Notes: generated by a model not told the origin, from the sequence alone. Shown: positions 5,217-63,163, numbered from the stretch's first letter. The stretch: DNA of 64,000 bases from an uncultured Candidatus Saccharibacteria bacterium (GCA_964365185.1 CAYIOP010000001.1:34675-98674); one strand, 5' to 3'. Translations and numbers: made by a program.

Positions 5217-6083
5217 ATGAACCAAAAAAATAATTTAAGTTTGATAATTTTTTTAATTTTGATTGTTTTTAATTTAGGAAGTTGGTATTTAGTGTTTTTT
5301 TCAAATGCCTCAAGTGAATCCGGGATTTATTTTTTAGATGTCGGTCAGGGCGATAGCAGTTTGCTTAAATTTGGTGGAGCCGAGATTTTGATTGACGCGG
5401 GCCCAAATTCAAAAGTAATTCAGTCGTTAGGGGCGAAGATGTTGGGGGATAAGTATATTGATTTAGGAGTAATAACTCATCCGGAACTAGACCATTTCAA
5501 TGGATTTAATTATCTTTTGAGCCGATATAATTTTGGGGCTTTTATAATTAACGGTCGGAGAGGAAGGACGGCCGAGTGGTCCGAGTTTTTAGCGGCGGCC
5601 GAGACCCATCAGATTCCAGTTTTAACTTTAGGAGCTGGGGATAAAATTTCTTACAATGATAATGAATTTAAAATTATTTCTCCAAGTGTTCAAGTTTTGG
5701 GTACTGGAGCGATGAATGATACCAGTTTAGTCGGCAAATTAGAAACTAGAAATTTTGGAGCTTTATTTTTAGGCGATATTAGCGAGAGTATTGAAAAATT
5801 TCTAATTCAAAATTATGAGCTTGAATTTCTGCGGGTTGAAGTTCTTAAGATTGCCCACCATGGCTCAAAATTTTCATCCAATAACGATTTTTTAAAAACC
5901 GTAGCGCCGAAAATCGCGTTAATTGGAGTGGGGGCAAGCAATACTTATGGTCATCCGACGCCTCAGACGCTTGAGCGGCTTACTAATTTGGAAGCTAAAA
6001 TTTTTCGAACTGACTTAGATGGAACAATTGTTATTCGGGAAATTGATGACAAATTAAAGGTTTTTTTGGGCATAGAGCAATGA
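5217..6083 (+). CDS. Metallo-beta-lactamase-fold protein (ComEC C-terminal domain as separate ORF with own N-terminal TM helix)
   Basis: FLDVGQGDSSLL, ILIDAGP, HPELDHFNG, AHHGS and TYGHP are MBL motifs typical of the ComEC C-terminal domain. The ORF starts 18 nt after the comEC stop. Confidence 0.7.
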   Translation: MNQKNNLSLIIFLILIVFNLGSWYLVFFSNASSESGIYFLDVGQGDSSLLKFGGAEILIDAGPNSKVIQSLGAKMLGDKYIDLGVITHPELDHFNGFNYLLSRYNFGAFIINGRRGRTAEWSEFLAAAETHQIPVLTLGAGDKISYNDNEFKIISPSVQVLGTGAMNDTSLVGKLETRNFGALFLGDISESIEKFLIQNYELEFLRVEVLKIAHHGSKFSSNNDFLKTVAPKIALIGVGASNTYGHPTPQTLERLTNLEAKIFRTDLDGTIVIREIDDKLKVFLGIEQ

Positions 6084-6131
6084 AATCGGGGATTATTTAA
6101 TAGGGGTTTTGGCGTGTTATAATTTAAAGTA

Positions 6132-7640
6132 ATGAATCTTTTGATTAAAAACGTTCAGATTATCGGGAGCGATCAAAAATTGCCGGATAGTTTGGATGTT
6201 TTTGTAAGCGGCGAGAAAATTGCGGCTATCGGACTTTTTCCAGGGAAGAAGGCCGATACTATTATTGATGGCCGAGGTTGTTACTTAGCTCCGGGTTTTA
6301 TTGATGTTGATACTGAGTCCGACCACTATTTGAGCATTTTAAATAATCCTGGCCAGGATGATTTTTTGAAGCAGGGCGTAACCAGTATTATTGGCGGTCT
6401 TTGCGGCGCGTCACTGGCGCCACTTCTCTATGGTAGTTTGGAGTCGATTGAGGAATGGGTGGATGTGCGGAGCGTGAATGTGGATTGGCACACCATGGGC
6501 GAGTTTTTGAATTTAATTAGCCAAAAAAAACTGGGAGTTAACTTTGGAACTTTGGTGGGCCACACAACTTTGCGTCAAGCCATTATTGGCAAAACCCCAA
6601 GGAATTTAACCAAAAATGAACTGACGGTTTTAGGTGAGGTTTTAAAAAGAGCGGTATCAGAAGGCGGTTTGGGATTGTCAACTGGTTTGGGTTATGTTCA
6701 GAGTCGCGAGACGCCTTATTCGGAGTTAAAATTTTTAGTGAAGATAGTTCAGGATTTAGGCGGAGTTTACGCTACTCATCTTCGAGATGACGCGGAGGGG
6801 CTAACCGAATCACTAGCTGAGACAATTAAAATTACCGAGGAGACCGGCAGTAAAACCTTAATCAGTCATTTTGTGCCGGTTAAAGGTTATGAATCTAAAT
6901 ATGAGCAGGCACTTAGACAACTTGAGGGTTTGCCGAATAAGCTTGATTTAAATTTTAGTATTTATCCATCGGACAGCCGGATTTTAAAACTTTATACTTT
7001 TTTGCCGCCTTGGGCTCAAAAAGACGATTTAAAGGTTATGGCTTTGGGGCTTAAGGATGAGTGGTTAAGTAAAAAAATTATTCAAGATTTACCAAAAATC
7101 GATCCGAAAAAATTTGTGGTGGCTCAGGCGCCGGATAATGAATTTGTGGTTGGTTATTCACTTGAGGAACTTAGAAAAATTTATTCTTTTAAAACTTATG
7201 AGGAGGCGCTCATAAAATTAATGTTGACCACCAATTTAAAAGCCACGATATTTTATAAAAATATTGATTATGATTTGATTAAAAAAGCTATTCAAAATTC
7301 TAAGTCGTTGATTGCGTCAAACGCCGCCAGTTTTAAAGATGATTTGTGGCATAAAGCTTTGAAGCCCGAGCGGGCTGTGTCGACCTTTACTAATTTTCTG
7401 GCGTTAATTTTCAAGGATAAAATAATGTCAATTGAAGACGGCATTAAAAAAATTACTTACGAGCCGGCTCGGAAATTTGGAATGCGGGAGAGGGGAGTGA
7501 TTCGTAGCGGTTACTTCGCCGATTTAGTCGGATTTCGGGAAGATAAGATTGAGTTTGTGGTCGTAAATGGTCGGATTGCCGTTTTAAACGGCGAACGGAT
7601 TGATAATTCGGCCGGGAAAGTTTTGAAGCACAGGGCTTAA
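6132..7640 (+). CDS. Amidohydrolase-family protein (N-acyl-D-amino-acid deacylase-like), first metal-binding motif degenerate
   Basis: LIKNVQIIG...IDGRGCYLAPGFIDVDTESDHY aligns to D-aminoacylase PGFIDVHTHDD, but the HxH is replaced by DxE. The overall amidohydrolase_3 layout is kept. Confidence 0.6.
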   Translation: MNLLIKNVQIIGSDQKLPDSLDVFVSGEKIAAIGLFPGKKADTIIDGRGCYLAPGFIDVDTESDHYLSILNNPGQDDFLKQGVTSIIGGLCGASLAPLLYGSLESIEEWVDVRSVNVDWHTMGEFLNLISQKKLGVNFGTLVGHTTLRQAIIGKTPRNLTKNELTVLGEVLKRAVSEGGLGLSTGLGYVQSRETPYSELKFLVKIVQDLGGVYATHLRDDAEGLTESLAETIKITEETGSKTLISHFVPVKGYESKYEQALRQLEGLPNKLDLNFSIYPSDSRILKLYTFLPPWAQKDDLKVMALGLKDEWLSKKIIQDLPKIDPKKFVVAQAPDNEFVVGYSLEELRKIYSFKTYEEALIKLMLTTNLKATIFYKNIDYDLIKKAIQNSKSLIASNAASFKDDLWHKALKPERAVSTFTNFLALIFKDKIMSIEDGIKKITYEPARKFGMRERGVIRSGYFADLVGFREDKIEFVVVNGRIAVLNGERIDNSAGKVLKHRA

Positions 7641-17450: not shown

Positions 17451-17692
17451 TATTTTCTATCGCTATTTTATTTGAGCGGCTTGGGGATAAGAAAAGTGTT
17501 TTTGATTTAAAATTTCTGTGCTATAGTAGAGGAAATGTCGGTTGATGATTCGAATTATAAAAAAGAAAGTCGCAGTTAGCGAAATTCAAGGTTAGCTTGA
17601 AGGACTCGCATAGCGGAGTTCTTTTTATTTTTCATCCGGCCGGATGAAAAATAATCCTGAGGAAATTGAAGGATTATCTTAAATTTTAACCA

Positions 17693-26107: not shown

Positions 26108-26130
26108 AGATGATTTTTGTTTTTTTGATA

Positions 26131-26162
26131 CTATTCTCTAATTCGCGCGAATTAGAGAATAG
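26131..26162. repeat. 32-nt perfect palindrome between array members 2 and 3
   Basis: ctattctctaattcgc|gcgaattagagaatag, read directly. It is preceded on the + strand by a T-run. Confidence 0.5.
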
Positions 26163-26181
26163 TTGGATAGAAGCGCCTTAA

Positions 26182-37507: not shown

Positions 37508-37607
37508 TTATTCCTCCTTCGGTGATATTTTGATTTCAAGATTTTAACTAATTACAATATATAAAATCGGGCAATATAGTCAATAGCCCTGCTTTAAAGA
37601 GCAATGT

Positions 37608-37647
37608 GCCTCCGCGCCACTATGACATGTCATAGTGGCGCGGAGGC
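37608..37647. repeat. 40-nt perfect palindrome (20+20, no loop) in GC-rich intergenic block
   Basis: gcctccgcgccactatgaca|tgtcatagtggcgcggaggc, read directly. It is followed by a second hairpin, gaccgc-atatatc-gcggtc, at 37649-37667. Confidence 0.6.
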
Positions 37648-37711
37648 CGACCGCATATATCGCGGTCTAAAAAGGTCGGGGCTTGTGGCACTGGGGAGTC
37701 CTAAATTGACA

Positions 37712-39492: not shown

Positions 39493-40641
39493 ATGAAATC
39501 CGTAATTCTATACGCATATCCGCCGGAGCCGGATGGACTTTCGCAACAGGGTGATATGCTCTATCGGGGACTCAAAGAAATTGGCGAGGAGATACTCCCC
39601 TGCCACCTCTCGAGCGAATTTCAGAAGGAGTGGATTTATAAATTTTTAAAGCCCGACGTGGCCATCGGTGTTGGATTTTGGGGACACACCCAGGATATTA
39701 TTTTGCATCCGCAGAAATTCGGTATTCAGCCAGTGCCGTGGCTACTCGCGGATGGCTGGGTGGCGAATTACCACAAAGAAATCGGCGAGTTGCCACTTGT
39801 ATTTACCACGAGTGATTGGGTGGCTCGAACTTTTGCTCGGGATGGGGTGGATACTAAAAATTTTCAAACGCTCTATATTGGGCTTGATACTGAACTTTTT
39901 AAACCCATTCCACGCAGTGACCCGAGAGTGAAATTGATTCGAGAGATGATTGGAGTACGTGAGGATGAAGTGATGATTATGACTGCTGGAGGCGATGTGA
40001 CTTCTAAAGGCGCGCAGGAGGTTTTTAGGGCCTTAAAAAGAGTGGATGCCGAGTTTAAAAATTGGAAGTATGTTTGTAAAATTTGGGGCGGAGCAAGCGC
40101 GGATGACCACTACGACGACGAGATGGCTTTGATTGAGGAGTTAGGCGAGGAGGCGAAAGAAAAAATAATTTACCTTGAAGGTTCAATGTCTCGTGAGTTT
40201 ATGCCTTTACTTTTAAACGCCTGCGATATTTACGCGGCGCCTTCGCGGCTGGAGGGATTTGGAATGATACAAGTAGAGGCAATGGCGTGTGGTAAGCCAG
40301 TGATTTCAATTGACGAGATGGGGCCAAAGGAGACGATATTGCATGGCGAGACGGGTTTCTTGGCTAAAGTGGCTTCAACTGTGGATTTAACCGAGGAGTG
40401 GGCCTATGTGGGCTGGGGATTTGAGGAGGATCATAAAATTCAGTTTGAAAAACCCAAGACGTTTGCTTATCGGGCTGACGCAGACCAGATTGCGGAGTAT
40501 TTGCTTAAATTACTTACAGATAAAGATTTGAGAGAAAAAATGGGTGCTCGGGCTCGTGAACACGCGGTAGAAAAATTTGAGTACCGAAAAATCGCCAAGC
40601 AGATGACGGATGTGATTAAGGAGAAGTTTAATTTGAACTAG
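39493..40641 (+). CDS. GT4-family glycosyltransferase
   Basis: C-terminal EGFGMIQVEAMACGKPVIS, the GT-B E-x7-E motif region. Confidence 0.7.
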   Translation: MKSVILYAYPPEPDGLSQQGDMLYRGLKEIGEEILPCHLSSEFQKEWIYKFLKPDVAIGVGFWGHTQDIILHPQKFGIQPVPWLLADGWVANYHKEIGELPLVFTTSDWVARTFARDGVDTKNFQTLYIGLDTELFKPIPRSDPRVKLIREMIGVREDEVMIMTAGGDVTSKGAQEVFRALKRVDAEFKNWKYVCKIWGGASADDHYDDEMALIEELGEEAKEKIIYLEGSMSREFMPLLLNACDIYAAPSRLEGFGMIQVEAMACGKPVISIDEMGPKETILHGETGFLAKVASTVDLTEEWAYVGWGFEEDHKIQFEKPKTFAYRADADQIAEYLLKLLTDKDLREKMGARAREHAVEKFEYRKIAKQMTDVIKEKFNLN

Positions 40642-40662: not shown

Positions 40663-41673
40663 ATGGATAAAGGAATTTTTACTCAGCTTCCCGGAAAAAT
40701 AGTGGAATTAGATTCTCGATTTAAATATGTAATGGCGCTGGCTTTGAATTCTCGCTCGAATTATATGAATGGAATTATTCGATGTATTACTAAACGAGAT
40801 GGAGATTTGCAAATTAAGGGATACGCAGATCGAAGTGTTTTGTATCAAGTTAGGGGTGATTCTCTTAAAAATTTCTATATAGAAAACAAATTGAACATTA
40901 ATGGAGAAGAAGAATTAATTAATCAATTTAGTGGTGATGATTGGGATTTTATGGGTTTTGAAGACCCTGATATTTGGATTGATGATATGGATGATTTTAC
41001 GCATGTTTATTTTACAATTTCGCTCTGGAATAAAAAGCAGCGGCATACGTTCTGTCATTTGGGACATGCCGAAGGCGCAAATTTAGATTCATTAGAAATG
41101 ACAGAACCGGTGCTTATTGTTGATGAAAAAATTCGGAGGGCCAAGGAACCCTCGATTGCTCCGGTGAATAAAGGAGGGTTTCGATATAATTTAATCGAAT
41201 CTCGGTCAGATAAAGGACAATTTTCCTATTCTACAGTAAGGGTTGCAATTACTGAAAATATGGGCGAACCCTGGAAATTTGGTGAGACGGTATTGCATCC
41301 GGCCGAAAATAATATTCCGTGGATTGGCGGACACGCTTCACCTGGACCTCTACTGTCTCAAAATTTTATAGATGTTGGAGATGGAAAGTGTTTAGGTTTT
41401 TTAAATGGGCGAGAAGTTAATCAAAAAATTGGAGAAAATGTGCGGTATGGAACATTCTCTATTGGCCTTTTCATATATGACTACGAGAATGGAAAAATTG
41501 ATTGGGTCTCATCTAAACCTTTTATTCAGGATAGTGAGGCGAAAACTATAACTTTTGCCAGCCAATTTGTTCAAACTGGTGAGAATGACGGAATTTTATA
41601 CGCCCACGTTGATGATTCTTTTGTTCGGGCTTATGAAATTAGAGCAAATTTAATTAAACCTCTGTTGATTTAA
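40663..41673 (+). CDS. hypothetical protein, possible beta-propeller glycosidase-like (weak)
   Basis: 336 aa with an acidic DWDFMGFEDPDIWIDD stretch reminiscent of GH32/43/130-type propellers. It is flanked by 51-nt direct repeats derived from the GT4 3' end. Confidence 0.25.
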   Translation: MDKGIFTQLPGKIVELDSRFKYVMALALNSRSNYMNGIIRCITKRDGDLQIKGYADRSVLYQVRGDSLKNFYIENKLNINGEEELINQFSGDDWDFMGFEDPDIWIDDMDDFTHVYFTISLWNKKQRHTFCHLGHAEGANLDSLEMTEPVLIVDEKIRRAKEPSIAPVNKGGFRYNLIESRSDKGQFSYSTVRVAITENMGEPWKFGETVLHPAENNIPWIGGHASPGPLLSQNFIDVGDGKCLGFLNGREVNQKIGENVRYGTFSIGLFIYDYENGKIDWVSSKPFIQDSEAKTITFASQFVQTGENDGILYAHVDDSFVRAYEIRANLIKPLLI

Positions 41674-41680
41674 CTTGATT

Positions 41681-41731
41681 ATCGCCAAACAAATGGCGGA
41701 TAAGATTAAGGAGAAGTTTAATTTGAACTAG
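41681..41731 (+). repeat. 51-nt duplicate of the 3' end of the GT4 gene (direct repeat partner of 40591..40641)
   Basis: atcgccaaacaaatggcggataagattaaggagaagtttaatttgaactag versus atcgccaagcagatgacggatgtgattaaggagaagtttaatttgaactag. The last 30 nt are identical, and the copy encodes ...IKEKFNLN*. Confidence 0.6.
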
Positions 41732-41770
41732 TTTATTTGGTGCATTGGTAATAACTGGAAACGTTCATTT

Positions 41771-41804
41771 TATACACTACTCTGCGATCGTAAAGTAGTG
41801 TATA
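41771..41804. repeat. hairpin repeat copy A (tatacactact-ctgcgatcgtaa-agtagtgtata)
   Basis: 11-bp perfect stem with a loop containing gcgatcg. A near-identical copy lies at 42431..42469. Confidence 0.55.
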
Positions 41805-41828
41805 AATAAAACATCAGTATTAAGTATT

Positions 41829-42419
41829 ATGTTAAAAACTAGAAGTTTGACGTCTAAAATTTTGGAAGTTGTAAGCGAGGGTGTAATCTCAACTTTTGAT
41901 GTTATCGGCGCGATTTTAGAGTCCGGTTACGGCGCTTCTTATGCGAAACTTGATGCTAGTGTTCGACGCTCTGAGGCGAGGCGTCATAATCGTGAATTGG
42001 AGCTTCGCAATAGACAGAGATTTAGTAATTTAATTTCTAAATTGAAACGGGACGGTTTAATTACTGGCGATAAGCGATCTTTAAAGATCACCGAGGCCGG
42101 ACGTAAGAAATTTTTAAAAATTCGGGAAATTGAGCGAAGTAGAGTTATTCACTCTCCTTTTGGATATCAAGCTAAAGTAAGTCGAAATCTTACAATCGTT
42201 ATTTTTGATATCCCGGAGAAGGAAAAGGTTAAAAGAAATTGGCTGCGAGCGGTTTTACTAAATCTCGGTTTTAAATTGCTTCAGAAGAGTGTTTGGATCG
42301 GTCGAGTTATTATTCCTCGGGAGTTTTTGAAAGATCTTCGAAATATGAGAATTTTGGAGTACATTCACATATTTTCTGTATCTCGATCGGGGACAATTGA
42401 AAATGATAAGGATGGATAG
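41829..42419 (+). CDS. hypothetical protein with winged-helix-like N-terminus; C-terminal region loosely Cas2/VapD-like (speculative)
   Basis: 196 aa. RFSNLISKLKRDGLITGDKRSLKITEAGRKKF looks like an HTH wing. TIVIFDIPEKEKVKRNWLRAVLLNLGFKLLQKSVWIG resembles the beta-alpha-beta core of the Cas2 fold. The gene is flanked by hairpin repeats A and B. Confidence 0.3.
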   Translation: MLKTRSLTSKILEVVSEGVISTFDVIGAILESGYGASYAKLDASVRRSEARRHNRELELRNRQRFSNLISKLKRDGLITGDKRSLKITEAGRKKFLKIREIERSRVIHSPFGYQAKVSRNLTIVIFDIPEKEKVKRNWLRAVLLNLGFKLLQKSVWIGRVIIPREFLKDLRNMRILEYIHIFSVSRSGTIENDKDG

Positions 42420-42430
42420 TTTCCCTTATA

Positions 42431-42469
42431 AATATACACTACTATGCGATCGTAGATTGGTGTATATTT
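42431..42469. repeat. hairpin repeat copy B (aatatacac-tactatgcgatcgtagattg-gtgtatatt)
   Basis: Shares tatacactact[c/a]tgcgatcgta with copy A, in direct orientation and 660 nt apart. Confidence 0.55.
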
Positions 42470-42590
42470 ATGATGAAAATGGAAATTGATTTAGATTACT
42501 AATAGCTAAGCAGCAACTGGAATCCGCGGCGCCGTAATAGACCATAAGCCCTCCATTCTTTAGAACTGCTCCTTCGGGGTTTGAGCATTT
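42468..42590 (-). pseudogene. GH130 C-terminal gene fragment (40 codons) duplicating the 3' end of 44849..45823
   Basis: The minus-strand translation KCSNPEGAVLKNGGLMVYYGAADSSCCLAISNLNQFPFSS* matches FPEGAVIKNGKLMVYYGAADSSCCLAIYNFNNFLK*. An in-frame stop lies upstream of the fragment. A 24-nt stretch, tccgcggcgccgtaatagaccat, is identical in the two copies. Confidence 0.55.
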
Positions 42591-42609
42591 CTAGTATCGC
42601 ATCTCCATT

Positions 42610-43056
42610 TTATACTCTCCTATTTTTTAAATACTCAGGAAAAGTTTTTCGTTTATCTTTTTCGGTTTCGTCCGTTTTTTCTTCCAATATTGCCTTCAGA
42701 TATCCAAGTGGATCAGCTGGATCAATGTCACTCACATTAAATTCTTTTACAACCTTAAAATATTCTGGTTTGTACATTTCCGAAGGATGTTGTCTTCGGG
42801 GACCTTCATATATTTCTAGCATCGCATCTCCATTTTCAAAAAATACTAACATTGCAAAATTCTTAAGTTCTTTATCTTCCCCTATCTTAAGATACGCCGG
42901 ATCACGTCCTTGATGGAGGAATATCTCTTTGTTAGCGCTACCTCCCTCGCTATATTTATCTATACTTTTAAAATATTCATAAAGAGTTTCTGGCGTAAAT
43001 TTTTTGCTTTCTGATTCTTTAATTTGTTCCGATTCTTCTGGGTTTTCGTACTTCAT
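42610..43056 (-). CDS. hypothetical acidic protein
   Basis: 148-aa ORF, E/K-rich, with no motif recognised. A 22-nt internal segment (42813-42836) is duplicated just downstream of its stop (42590-42612). Confidence 0.3.
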   Translation of the reverse strand: MKYENPEESEQIKESESKKFTPETLYEYFKSIDKYSEGGSANKEIFLHQGRDPAYLKIGEDKELKNFAMLVFFENGDAMLEIYEGPRRQHPSEMYKPEYFKVVKEFNVSDIDPADPLGYLKAILEEKTDETEKDKRKTFPEYLKNRRV

Positions 43057-43153
43057 GATTATAATTATTTCTGATTATTATTTTTTGTCAATTTTTGTCT
43101 GTTTAGTACTATTTGTAAAACGTACTAACGCGAGAAAATTTGTACGCCAAAAG

Positions 43154-43181
43154 TTGACAAACAGGGGAATTATGCTATAAT
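43154..43181 (+). promoter_or_regulatory. sigma70-type promoter TTGACA-N16-TATAAT with upstream inverted-repeat operator candidate
   Basis: ttgaca at 43154-43159 and tataat at 43176-43181. Upstream, ttagtac-N12-gtactaa forms an inverted repeat at about 43104-43130. Confidence 0.45.
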
Positions 43182-43271
43182 CCCCTTGTTCTTGTCTCTC
43201 TTGTTATTTGATAAGTGAATAGCCGCTGTCTATGGGATAATCCATGGTCAGCGCAGTATTAACCATTTTTT

Positions 43272-44408
43272 TTGGCTATACGCCAAGAAAGGAAGTCCAC
43301 GATGACGGTTTCGACCAACATCGCTAGTTCTGCAAATATCTACTTCGGAGGTGAGTTGGTTCCGACCAACTCAGCTGGAGATATGGTATTTGCGATTGCT
43401 GGGACGCTGAGTAACGAAGTTATCAGTCGTCTGTCCAGGAAACTTTCGCGGAAACCAATGAGTTTCCAAGAACTTATTTATTCTTGTGACTACGAACTAT
43501 TGAGGCACTTGGCGACGGATGTCTATCTGCTTGTGATCCAACCAGGTCATGAAAAGCAATTCACGAATGAGGTAAGGGCTTTGGAATTGTGGAGGCAGGG
43601 CGCCCAGCGAGTACTTCTTATCCGCGGAGGTGCGTTGATTCTGGCAGAAAAAATGTCTGAATACACCCGTCGTAAGATTACGTCAAATTTGCCATCAAAC
43701 CGCATCTTGAAATGCCTTTGTGCTTTCGACGGTGTATCTATTCCAGGTCTGACAGGATTTGATCTTACTTCCGCATTTTCTGCGATTGCACTTGCACTGG
43801 AGCAGGTTGTGGAGGAAAAGGTTAAGGTACTACTCAAACTGGCTATCGTTGACACACTGATCAACGGACGTCGCCTTGAAGACTGCGTACCGATTGCGCT
43901 TCCCGGCCAGACCGCCTATCTCATTGGTGGTCTGTCGACTACCTCGCCCGATTCTCAGTCGTTTATACTAGGAACCAACCTTACTCGCGATGCATTTGAG
44001 CGTCTCTTGGGATTAGTGAATCCGGCGTCGGAGTTTCGTGAGCTAATCGCTGGCATCAAGCCGATTCTTGACCACATCATTACTGACACGTATGCCTTAG
44101 TGCATAATCGTGGAGGTGAGACGAAAGTCAAGGCGGTGGTCCTATGTAGTCATGGTGACCGGAAACTCCTCCTCACTCGCGGAGGCAGTATGCCTATTGT
44201 GAGAGAGGAGAGTGGAGCATTCTTTGTCCTCGACAACTTTGTCGACGAGATGTCCGACCAATACCCAGGTTTCAAACTTGGCGAAGCTTTGTACTCTGTC
44301 CGACAGCAGATCGCCAACGTTATCAGGATAAGAGCTGAGGTGCTCGGCGTGCTTGCTAATGCGTCACAGATGATTTCAACCATTTGGGCCGGAGGTAAGC
44401 AGTCATGA
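43272..44408 (+). CDS. hypothetical protein of GC-rich island (likely true start ATG 43302 with AGGAAG RBS)
   Basis: 378-aa ORF with clearly higher G+C and different codon choice (ctg, cgt, acc) than the flanks. No recognisable motif. Its stop overlaps the next start (ATGA). Confidence 0.45.
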   Translation: MAIRQERKSTMTVSTNIASSANIYFGGELVPTNSAGDMVFAIAGTLSNEVISRLSRKLSRKPMSFQELIYSCDYELLRHLATDVYLLVIQPGHEKQFTNEVRALELWRQGAQRVLLIRGGALILAEKMSEYTRRKITSNLPSNRILKCLCAFDGVSIPGLTGFDLTSAFSAIALALEQVVEEKVKVLLKLAIVDTLINGRRLEDCVPIALPGQTAYLIGGLSTTSPDSQSFILGTNLTRDAFERLLGLVNPASEFRELIAGIKPILDHIITDTYALVHNRGGETKVKAVVLCSHGDRKLLLTRGGSMPIVREESGAFFVLDNFVDEMSDQYPGFKLGEALYSVRQQIANVIRIRAEVLGVLANASQMISTIWAGGKQS

Positions 44409-44692
44409 TGATGGAATACAGAATTATGCTGATTGTTATCTTTATGATGGCATGCCTATGCTTTTTTGGGAGCATTCGACGTCTCGTAAGCACCGACAAA
44501 GAAAAGTACATTACTTTCGGAATCTTCTTCCTGTTTGTGGGGATAGCGTCAGCCATTGCAATTAGCCTCGAAGGGCAATACTATGCCGAAGGGCAATACT
44601 CTACTTTTTCAGGCGTCGACTATTCCATCCAATTCTTCGTGTTGGTTCTAGAGTCTGGATATCTCTTCCATGTCACCAAATGGGGAGAGTAA
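44405..44692 (+). CDS. small membrane protein (95 aa, 2-3 TM) translationally coupled to upstream island gene
   Basis: MMMEYRIMLIVIFMMACLCFFGS...FGIFFLFVGIASAIAISL hydrophobic helices, with an ATGA overlap at 44405-44408. Confidence 0.45.
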   Translation: MMMEYRIMLIVIFMMACLCFFGSIRRLVSTDKEKYITFGIFFLFVGIASAIAISLEGQYYAEGQYSTFSGVDYSIQFFVLVLESGYLFHVTKWGE

Positions 44693-44850: not shown

Positions 44851-45823
44851 ACTTTAGAAAATTATTGAAGTTGTAGATAGCTAGACAGCAGCTGGAGTCC
44901 GCGGCGCCGTAATAGACCATTAGCTTTCCATTTTTTATCACCGCGCCTTCTGGAAAAGTGACATTATTTACAATCCCCTTTCTTTCATAAAGTTTTTGAG
45001 GTTCTAGGATTGGTCTTTCAGATTGCCACAAAACTTCTCGTGGATTTTTTAAGTCCAAAAGCGCGGCGTGGATGGGCCACACTTTTTTTCCTATAGCAGG
45101 ACCACAATAAATTAAAAGCCAGCCCTTGCTAGTTTTGATTGGTGGTGCGCCTAGCTCTGGACCGCGCAGAGCGCCGCGGGGAGGCAGGAGCACGGCGTGT
45201 TTATCAAAGTTGGTGAAAATTTTACCCCAATAATTCTTGGGAGGATGGAACAGTTCTTTTGTGTCCTTAAATTCAGTGTAGAGAATAGAGGAGTCCACTT
45301 TGTCGGGATGCCAGGTGAATAACATTCCGATTTTTCCGTTAATTTTCGCTGGGAAAATTGCCGCAGCTTTGGCTCGGACTTGGTCTGGTTTTGGCCCAAT
45401 AAAGCCATGCTTCTGAATTTTCTTAAAATCTTTGGTTGTGGCTAGAGCGATTCCGGGTACTTCCTTTTTGGAATATGCCGGTTTTGACATGGCTGTGTAG
45501 AAAATGTAATAGGTGTCACCGAGTTTGGTTATTCGAGGGTCTTCGCAGCCGAATTGATTCCAGGGGTGATCTGGTTTTATAAGGGGTTTTGCCGAGCGGG
45601 AAAAATTTATGCCATCCTTACTAGTGGCGTAGCCGATGGAAGAAATGTAATTAGTATAACCACCGGCAGGTCTTGGCTTGAATCCGGCTCGAACCGCGCG
45701 ATAGACCATATGGAAAATTCCATTTTCATAGACCACGGATGGATTAAAAACCGAACCGGCTTCCCAAAAGTTTTTGGGGTTGGGTTTTAAAATTGGATTT
45801 CTTGGGTAGCGGATAAGTTTCAT
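44849..45823 (-). CDS. GH130-family glycoside hydrolase/phosphorylase (5-bladed beta-propeller)
   Basis: NPIL.P....WE..SVFNPSVVYENGIFHMVYRAV, GYATSKDG and GCEDPRITKLGDTYYIFYTA are hallmark GH130 motifs. Confidence 0.7.
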   Translation of the reverse strand: MKLIRYPRNPILKPNPKNFWEAGSVFNPSVVYENGIFHMVYRAVRAGFKPRPAGGYTNYISSIGYATSKDGINFSRSAKPLIKPDHPWNQFGCEDPRITKLGDTYYIFYTAMSKPAYSKKEVPGIALATTKDFKKIQKHGFIGPKPDQVRAKAAAIFPAKINGKIGMLFTWHPDKVDSSILYTEFKDTKELFHPPKNYWGKIFTNFDKHAVLLPPRGALRGPELGAPPIKTSKGWLLIYCGPAIGKKVWPIHAALLDLKNPREVLWQSERPILEPQKLYERKGIVNNVTFPEGAVIKNGKLMVYYGAADSSCCLAIYNFNNFLK

Positions 45824-62964: not shown

Positions 62965-63163
62965 GTTTAAAATGTTTCCGCCGGAGGCGGATCTTTCTCC
63001 GGAGGACGAGATGATCGAATATTTAATTCGTCGTGCGAAAGATTTTAACTTTAATTCTAGCTTTAGTAAAGAAAAACTGGAGTTTTACATCCGGTTTGAT
63101 TAAACTTAAAAAAATAACCCCTCTTTGCAATTGCAAAGAGGGGTCGAATGTTCAAGAGGTGAC

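Follow-up and report, generated by a model that had tools for sequence, protein, structure and literature searches.

A PaaX-type protein without the ligand-sensing domain and the two long palindromes bracketing its gene: a putative self-regulating protein-and-site pair in Patescibacteria

PaaX of Escherichia coli and Pseudomonas (structures 8a39 and 3l09; Pfam domains PF07848, PF20803 and PF08223) is a phenylacetyl-CoA-responsive repressor in which an N-terminal winged helix is followed by a Cas2-like central domain. The E. coli protein binds TGATTC-N27-GAATCA, an inverted repeat of ~39 bp, and represses its own promoter Px by occlusion (PMC9493321). Here we describe a gene with the same order of winged helix and Cas2-like domain in 64,000 nt of DNA from an uncultured Candidatus Saccharibacteria bacterium (GCA_964365185.1, CAYIOP010000001.1:34675-98674; this whole stretch is called the window). 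The gene (41829..42419, plus strand), characterized with Pfam, NCBIfam, AlphaFold and Foldseek, encodes a 196-aa protein, here termed mini-PaaX, and is bracketed by two copies of a palindrome, U upstream (copy A, 41771..41804) and D downstream (copy B, 42431..42469), neither assigned to a strand. The bracket architecture is found again in hundreds of related bacteria and has the appearance of a self-regulating protein-and-site pair, not of a part of a CRISPR system. A very long inverted repeat (~35–40 bp here) is a further likeness to PaaX. On the other hand, mini-PaaX lacks the C-terminal PaaX_C domain, having 196 aa compared with ~305–316 aa for PaaX, and no paa (phenylacetate) genes lie near it. 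In addition, the symmetry of its site runs nearly without a break to ±17–20 from a dyad that is invariantly CGATCG, the stop codon is followed by another site, the arms are paralog-specific, and the occurrence is apparently limited to Patescibacteria.

Other described systems share parts of this arrangement. Cas2 and VapD have the ferredoxin-like Cas2 fold, and the mini-PaaX segment FDIP...KRxWLR...LQKSVW lines up in order with YDV...KRNKL...IQRSAF of Cas2, strand-1 Asp included; in Cas1-Cas2-DNA structures, Cas2 dimers lie along duplex DNA. However, the mini-PaaX domain is fused to a winged helix and is accompanied by no cas1, CRISPR array or other cas genes. The tyrosine transposases associated with repetitive extragenic palindromes (REPs), or RAYTs, and their REPINs resemble mini-PaaX in that one gene, passed on mostly by vertical descent, is flanked by extragenic palindromes of a class specific to it, with more copies between genes, a bias toward gene ends, and distinct palindrome classes for paralogs. 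They differ in that mini-PaaX is not an HUH/Y1 transposase, its palindromes are near-perfect and centre-symmetric whereas REPs are imperfect hairpins tagged GTAG or CGTC, apparently a handful of copies occurs per genome as opposed to tens to hundreds, and the upstream copy would double as the promoter region of the gene. Finally, Tus (with TerB) and RTP (with TerI) are site-binding proteins whose own promoters overlap one of their chromosomal sites. As may apply here, one cognate site autoregulates and the others do a non-transcriptional job elsewhere. There is no sequence or fold kinship to these proteins, however, and mini-PaaX has several paralogs of different specificities; moreover, its sites are symmetric and therefore could not act as polar fork barriers, unlike those of Tus and RTP.

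We examined the domain composition of the 196-aa protein. Its C-terminal domain (~residues 116–192, 42174..42404, plus strand; Pfam and fold search) matched PF20803 PaaX_M, the ‘central Cas2-like domain’, over residues 122–193 (48.8 bits, cutoff 24; E 7.8e-13). The match to the NCBIfam model TIGR01573 (cas2) was marginal, with 26.1 against a cutoff of 24.5 over residues 121–160 only, and Cas2 sequence matches reach just the first ~40 residues of the domain. The AlphaFold model, with a predicted local distance difference test (pLDDT) score of 81.5, has a winged helix at the N-terminus, with helices and a beta-wing across residues 7–105, and a ferredoxin-like domain at the C-terminus. With Foldseek, the C-terminal domain retrieved Cas2 structures (5zyf at probability 1.0, TM 0.61 normalised to target), and the whole model retrieved E. 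coli PaaX (8a39) and Rv0674 (3kfw). The N-terminal winged helix (~residues 1–105, 41829..42143, plus strand) was defined by model and fold search; its sequence matches were weak (Pfam HTH_45, E 0.0024; PDB profiles of PadR-family regulators, E 0.4–0.5). A profile of the C-terminal domain aligned to the Cas2-type structures 3exc and 6jhz, with IVIFDIPE..KRNWLR..LGF.LLQKSVW of mini-PaaX opposite LVVYDVSD..KRNKLA..LGLERIQRSAF of the Cas2-type proteins. In this alignment, D127 falls on the conserved Asp ending Cas2 strand 1, which we take to be the catalytic Asp.

No match to PF08223, the PaaX_C ligand-sensing domain, was obtained, and the chain ends at residue 196, directly after the Cas2-like domain; this architecture is common to all ~190-aa homologues. 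Among the invariant residues we found no HUH or tyrosine-transposase motif, and Pfam, NCBIfam and the fold search yielded PaaX_M and Cas2 only. The 64-kb window contained no CRISPR or tandem array, and the ten neighbouring open reading frames (ORFs) scanned contained no Cas domains and no cas1. A CRISPR mini-array was rejected on these grounds, and also because the ‘spacer’ would be the gene itself. The nearest family of the protein is PaaX, not CRISPR, and to judge from its sequence and predicted fold the protein appears to be a PaaX-type repressor without the ligand-binding tail. These results agree with the first-pass annotation, which was made from the sequence alone and had proposed a winged-helix N-terminus and, as a guess, a Cas2/VapD-type fold for the C-terminal segment, and had noted that no CRISPR array was present.

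The two palindromes in the window are closely related. U (TATACACTACTCTGCGATCGTAAAGTAGTGTATA) is near-palindromic around a dyad at 41787/41788, with a CGATCG core at 41785–41790 and arms (TATACACTACT/AGTAGTGTATA) that pair perfectly at dyad positions 7–19; its stem spans 41769–41806, and its centre lies 41 nt from the ATG. D has a 34-nt core at 42433–42466 (TATACACTACTATGCGATCGTAGATTGGTGTATA) in an extended stem (42426–42473), a CGATCG core at 42447–42452, and a dyad 30 nt past the stop codon. U and D stand in direct register with a start-to-start distance of 662 nt and have the same base at 30 of 34 positions (88% identity). They share the outer arms and also an asymmetry (TGCGATCGTA), and D has decayed more than U in the inner portion of the right arm; the window's own element sequence is ACACTACTNTGCGATCGTA. 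The 22-nt core common to U and D was found at 2 sites in the window, compared with 0.00 expected from 100 shuffles (a third listed match is copy A read on the reverse strand). When folded, copy A formed a 13-bp outer stem with a free energy of −17.5 kcal/mol (z −6.7 against shuffled controls), and copy B gave −19.0 (z −5.7); the reverse strands of both likewise form folds. The sole ORF enclosed is 41829–42419. Two direct copies of a hairpin element bracketing one gene had been described in the first-pass annotation, and position, identity and folding all bear out that description.

We then compared 81 loci, that is, the window and 80 loci from species-representative genomes (designated by L numbers), whose proteins are 34–52% identical to the window protein. 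A long palindrome was present upstream of the family gene in 58/81 loci, downstream in 68/81 and on both sides in 54/81, with median distances of 44–48 nt from centre to start codon and 45–47 nt from stop codon to centre. This spacing was independent of the orientation of the neighbouring genes. In fact, U was kept in 18 of the 22 loci with a divergent upstream neighbour, so that it cannot be a terminator of the upstream gene. The centre was CGATCG in ~95% of copies, and ±4 was A/T in ~65%. Within 746 kb of gene-centred loci, 84 CGATCG-centred palindromes adjoined a family gene and 6 lay elsewhere, from which we roughly estimate a ~350-fold higher density beside the gene. Arm identity between U and D was 0.79 within a locus and 0.34 between loci, and the best match to U was the D of its own locus in 81% of cases, each paralog being paired with its own palindrome class. 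In L005, L006, L085, L087 and L090 (45–61% identical to the window protein), the outer box TACAC(T) was kept and the inner spacer was variable. The bracket is a conserved, family-wide architecture. Of the concern raised at first pass, that the element might be a generic REP-like terminator beside a protein with no Cas2 signal, one part stands, as single cognate copies at low copy number do occur at other gene ends in relatives; however, the element is positioned by the gene and is not generic, a Cas2-fold signal was found, and the stem is AT-rich with no T-tract.

A word-indexed search returned 442 homologues, of which those listed have 150–232 aa, mostly ~190 aa, and those with an organism name all belong to Patescibacteria or groups inside it (Liptonbacteria, Wolfebacteria, Colwellbacteria). 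An exhaustive profile search gave 2,075 representatives (50%-identity clusters) at E ≤ 1e-10, 791 of them also at E ≤ 1e-30, and 123 stretches encoding a relative were found in species-representative genomes. By these searches the family appears to be confined to Patescibacteria. Several genomes carry 2–4 diverged paralogs, which are 35–50% identical; near-identical duplicate units were not found within one genome, nor was a hidden second paralog found in the window or the loci examined. Many homologues bear the database label ‘CRISPR-associated endonuclease Cas2’, which is a misnomer for mini-PaaX proteins. We found no description of the family or of the palindrome bracket in the searchable literature. 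No relatives were detected on 2.9 million viral contigs, no PHROGs match was obtained, and a search of viral DNA for the pattern gave two matches, neither of them palindromic; a phage or plasmid origin was rejected on the viral-contig and PHROGs results. The window originates from Hainich groundwater. In that population, four contigs carry the identical protein or its neighbour with the same layout on all, and presence/absence of the unit among strains of the source population was rejected since 4/4 contigs were alike.

The neighbours of the relatives are housekeeping genes, with synteny stable over wide clades, and no conserved partner (antitoxin) gene was seen beside the family gene among the loci examined. 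A Xer-type (XerC/XerD) tyrosine recombinase gene lies directly upstream in 18/80 loci (L010, L015, L020–L024, L030, L031 and others), on the same strand in nearly all, which may represent clade synteny or a functional link. Note that in most of the Xer loci examined, U is located between both genes.

Next, we consider the position of U relative to the promoter. A candidate −10 box, TATAAA (5/6 match; 41801..41806, plus strand), is found at the gene-proximal edge of U as a putative promoter element. A match to TATAAT of at least 5/6 was present on the gene side of U in 33/58 loci (13 perfect), most commonly starting at +17/+18 from the dyad, compared with 17/58, 12/68 and 14/68 at three control positions (p 2e-3 to 4e-6). 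A 17-nt spacer puts the −35 element on TTGACG or TTGCGA, overlapping the palindrome core. As U overlaps the promoter, bound protein would occlude RNA polymerase. The overlap of a long inverted repeat with the gene's own promoter is thus seen in silico in 33/58 loci, from which autorepression is predicted.

The pattern of arm mismatches points to a DNA site. Mismatches were G:T in 61 cases and A:C in 62, with no tolerance of G:U on either strand, and asymmetric centres occurred both ways (CGGTCG and CGACCG); an RNA-level hairpin function was therefore rejected. Pairing by dyad position was 90–98% at 8–16 and 87–90% at 4–5, with a dip to 76–79% at 6–7, and symmetry fell to background beyond ~20 from the dyad. 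This profile is what two zones of protein contact in each half-site of duplex DNA would give, and not what an RNA stem would. A known RNA family was also rejected, as Rfam gave just a sub-threshold match to a miRNA hairpin. No terminator-like sites were detected in 41600–42700. The palindrome stems are rich in A and T, have T's ahead of them and A's behind, and lack a T-tract, and canonical GC-rich T-tract terminators, where detectable, were located after D in 7 loci versus 0; an intrinsic (Rho-independent) terminator was rejected on these grounds.

We calculated mutual information between protein residues and DNA positions across 72 loci. The strongest pairs were between DNA positions 4 and 5 and residues 133 and 137 (z 10.3, 6.8 and 6.2), the two residues being one turn apart on helix 1 of the Cas2-fold domain. 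Specifically, R133 occurred with A4 in 35/42 loci, K133 with G4 in 12/21, Q133 with C4 in 3/3, and D137 with C5 in 13/17. Recognition-helix residues 67, 70, 71 and 73 paired with positions 11–14 (z 8.0 to 4.6). The switch between K/G and R/A was repeated within outer-box clades, namely in L046 vs L039 and L072, L044 vs L056 and L057, L066 vs L083, and L030 vs L032 and L038. In a second set of 19 metagenome units, every G4 was accompanied by K (7/7) and every R by A (4/4), and all arms of the ACTATCC type had as partner a recognition helix that hardly varied, Q[KR]YNYKK. The co-variation is good but not conclusive evidence that the mini-PaaX protein itself reads the palindrome; in such a reading, the winged helix would contact the outer box, and the Cas2-fold domain would sit beside the dyad.

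We favour, as reasonably probable, autorepression through the promoter-overlapping upstream palindrome, with the downstream copy as a second cognate site. The unit would then be a self-contained protein-and-site pair, in which the 196-aa protein binds both ~35–40-bp palindromes, probably as a dimer. The winged helices would read the clade-specific outer boxes at about positions 8–16 from the dyad, and the Cas2-fold domains would cover the CGATCG centre, which is invariant, and read positions 4–5. Having its core near −30 and the −10 box on its margin, U would act as an operator at which bound protein shuts off its own transcription, by analogy with E. coli PaaX at Px. D would be a second cognate site without a promoter, possibly an auxiliary operator that forms a loop over the ~0.67-kb gene, or else a protein-bound roadblock or boundary where the gene ends.

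Several observations weigh against autorepression as a full account. The window's U has just a 5/6 −10 box with a weak −35 element, and this TATAAA fails a stricter −10 rule that demands T at position 6. The protein–DNA co-variation is confounded by phylogeny; an independent sister-pair test gave only marginal values (p 0.006–0.02) and was underpowered and affected by divergence, and other residue–position pairs scored equally well in it. A simple operator model leaves unexplained the second site after the stop codon in 68/81 loci. The alignment of D127 with the Cas2 Asp would leave room for an enzymatic role of mini-PaaX. Differences between U and D of one locus comprised 78 compensated double and 102 single changes; the compensated changes, 5–8 per position at 7, 9, 10 and 11, reach by a rough estimate ~10 times the rate expected of independent mutation. 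They imply either selection for intrastrand pairing (a cruciform or hairpin) or template-switch ‘correction’, which is a known mechanism at quasi-palindromes. Note that U–D changes are concentrated at positions 5–11, the core and positions 12–16 being nearly always identical, and that the protein of one locus evidently accepts both variants.

Copies away from the family gene also count against it. In a palindrome-first metagenome scan, which used the common arm type ACTATCC rather than the window's own arms, 25 copies adjoined a family gene and 48 did not, with 37 left undecided. Among the long-armed solo copies (45), 14 lay between convergent genes, 23 between tandem genes and 3 between divergent genes, and −10 boxes were not enriched at them. 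Solo palindromes as operators of a regulon were rejected, in view of the lack of −10 enrichment and the few divergent-promoter locations. The downstream and solo copies are not promoters, nor are they intrinsic terminators; they may be loop-forming sites, roadblocks or boundaries, or scars. Their density is low, with no extra copy in the 64-kb window and ~4–6 solos per 650 kb.

The main rival explanation, which would accommodate such copies, is that the unit is a REP/RAYT-like or IS200-like element built on the Cas2 fold, whose protein recognises, and perhaps nicks, extruded cognate palindromes, so that the unit relocates, and whose single palindromes are spread copies or scars left by recombination of two flanking copies. 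We regard this as unlikely. Its appeal lies in the RAYT-REPIN likeness mentioned above, a gene flanked by its own palindrome class with one class per paralog, together with the extragenic location of the solos and their preference for convergent (14) over divergent (3) junctions, the intrastrand pairing implied by the compensated arm changes, and the position of D127 on the conserved Cas2 Asp. Local movement of the unit is likewise in its favour. At one syntenic site, the whole unit is present in L072 and only a solo palindrome in L135 and six similar contigs, with no gene remnant detectable at the L135 solo site; the flanking genes of L072 and L135 are just 44–62% identical, which makes the comparison a deep one. 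The unit of the window is placed between the 3′-end remnants of two genes. A glycosyltransferase remnant of 51 nt (41681..41731, plus strand), 90% identical to 40591–40641, ends 39 nt before U, and a GH130 remnant (42470..42578, minus strand), 77% identical to 44857–44953, has its stop codon in the extended stem of D, as the first-pass annotation had seen in placing copy B against the end of a GH130 pseudogene. These two remnants place the unit inside a former glycosyltransferase/GH130 junction. In L087 and L090, the glycosyltransferase and GH130 genes are convergent with a stop-to-stop overlap, and the unit is beyond GH130, on its other side. The unit has moved locally.

However, active transposition is disfavoured by the lack of near-identical duplicates in a genome, where paralogs are only 35–50% identical, by wide-clade synteny such as the upstream Xer-type recombinase, and by the lack of an HUH, tyrosine-transposase or other transposase-like motif. 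The apparently low number of copies, the symmetric centre and strand-symmetric mismatches, which fit duplex recognition, and the lack of relatives on viral contigs also speak against a REP/RAYT-like or IS200-like element. More doubtful still, in our estimate, is a RAYT-REPIN-like partnership on the Cas2 fold, in which the dyad CGATCG of the extruded palindrome is read, and perhaps also cut or nicked, by the domain and the unit relocates or leaves solos.

Quite improbable is an autoregulated toxin or defence gene, that is, a Cas2/VapD-type RNase or DNase held in check by the fused winged helix, for which the palindromes would be the operator only. The weak Cas2 matches in PADLOC and NCBIfam, the conserved Asp, the several diverged paralogs per genome, and the location of the window locus in a variable region with ORFan insertions could be read in this way. 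However, the gene adjoins no conserved antitoxin partner, no defence-system match beyond the partial Cas2 one and no phage family was obtained, the neighbours are housekeeping genes in stable synteny, and downstream and solo palindromes would be left unexplained. Finally, generic terminators, mRNA-stabilising stems or sites of another factor that flank the gene by chance and are not read by its product are very improbable, since stable hairpins on either strand, gene-end positions and the preference of solos for convergent junctions are outweighed by AT-rich stems without terminator character, canonical T-tract terminators beyond D, a U retained beside divergent neighbours, the estimated enrichment beside the gene, and locus-specific arms that co-vary with the protein and have no G:U bias.

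Patescibacteria have tiny genomes with few recognisable regulators, and to our knowledge almost nothing is known about transcription control in them. The family is large and uniform (791 representatives), and its cognate site can be read from the genome, with two copies per gene; the pair is thus ready for experiments and, given that each paralog has its own arms, might serve as an orthogonal toolkit. The annotation would also be corrected for many entries named Cas2 in a lineage largely without CRISPR. If residues 133 and 137 truly read the dyad-adjacent bases, the Cas2 fold would be a sequence-reading DNA-binding module, of which we know of no description. If instead the RAYT-like reading were true, mini-PaaX would be the first Cas2-fold protein that sequence-specifically recognises palindromic repeats outside CRISPR, which would bear on how Cas2 came to palindromic repeats. 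The downstream and solo sites go beyond standard operator logic and may mark a kind of boundary at which protein is bound, or a mobile palindrome system of low copy number.

Additional palindromes near the unit bracket other genes. L012 has four copies of one class in 5.6 kb (781, 4953, 5622 and 6348), two of which bracket the family gene; the next interval contains a second, unrelated winged-helix gene (5703–6206, minus strand), and the fourth copy is upstream of rplJ, so that palindromes and genes alternate much as in an array (palindrome, gene, palindrome, gene, palindrome). In L120 (4411, 4499) and in L146 (2900, 3025), which equals L169 (6088, 6213), pairs of palindromes centred on CGATCG or CCGATCGG, with different arm classes, are 88–125 nt apart in one intergenic region. 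Such pairs of different classes suggest landing or binding spots common to different paralogs.

The neighbours in the window are PIG-L, NUDIX, GT4 and GH130 genes and ORFans, with no paa genes near. The duplicated 3′ end of GH130 corresponds to 97 nt (42482–42578 vs 44857–44953, 77% identity). ORFan blocks lie between each intact gene and its remnant, at 40663–41673 for the glycosyltransferase and 42610–44692 for GH130; they gave no Pfam, PHROGs or PADLOC match, and their ORFs are absent from L085, L087 and L090. Remnants and ORFan blocks are arranged as if two Campbell-type insertions had occurred at the 3′ ends of genes. A 25-nt direct repeat, ATTTCTAG[T/C]ATCGCATCTCCATTTT, is found at 42587–42611 and 42812–42836 (96% identical), with one copy just after the stop codon of a 148-aa ORFan and the other within that ORFan.

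Avoidance of CGATCG through restriction was rejected, with 7 observed vs 8–9 expected in the window. A perfect 34-nt palindrome, ACTATTCTCTAATTCGCGCGAATTAGAGAATAGT, is present at 26130–26163 between tandem minus-strand genes, after one stop codon and before the next start codon. It has ‘ACTAT...’-like arms and the centre CGCGCG instead of CGATCG, and possibly represents a solo site belonging to a related system. Three more long palindromes are located at 17625–17654, 37605–37650 and 63117–63144, with the centres CGGCCG, ACATGT and CAATTG, respectively. The ACATGT-type palindrome, CACTATGACATGTCATAGTG, was found again in unrelated loci, e.g., L008, and may be the site of another conserved regulator. 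Over the whole window, GATC is under-represented, with 142 observed vs ~226–232 expected.

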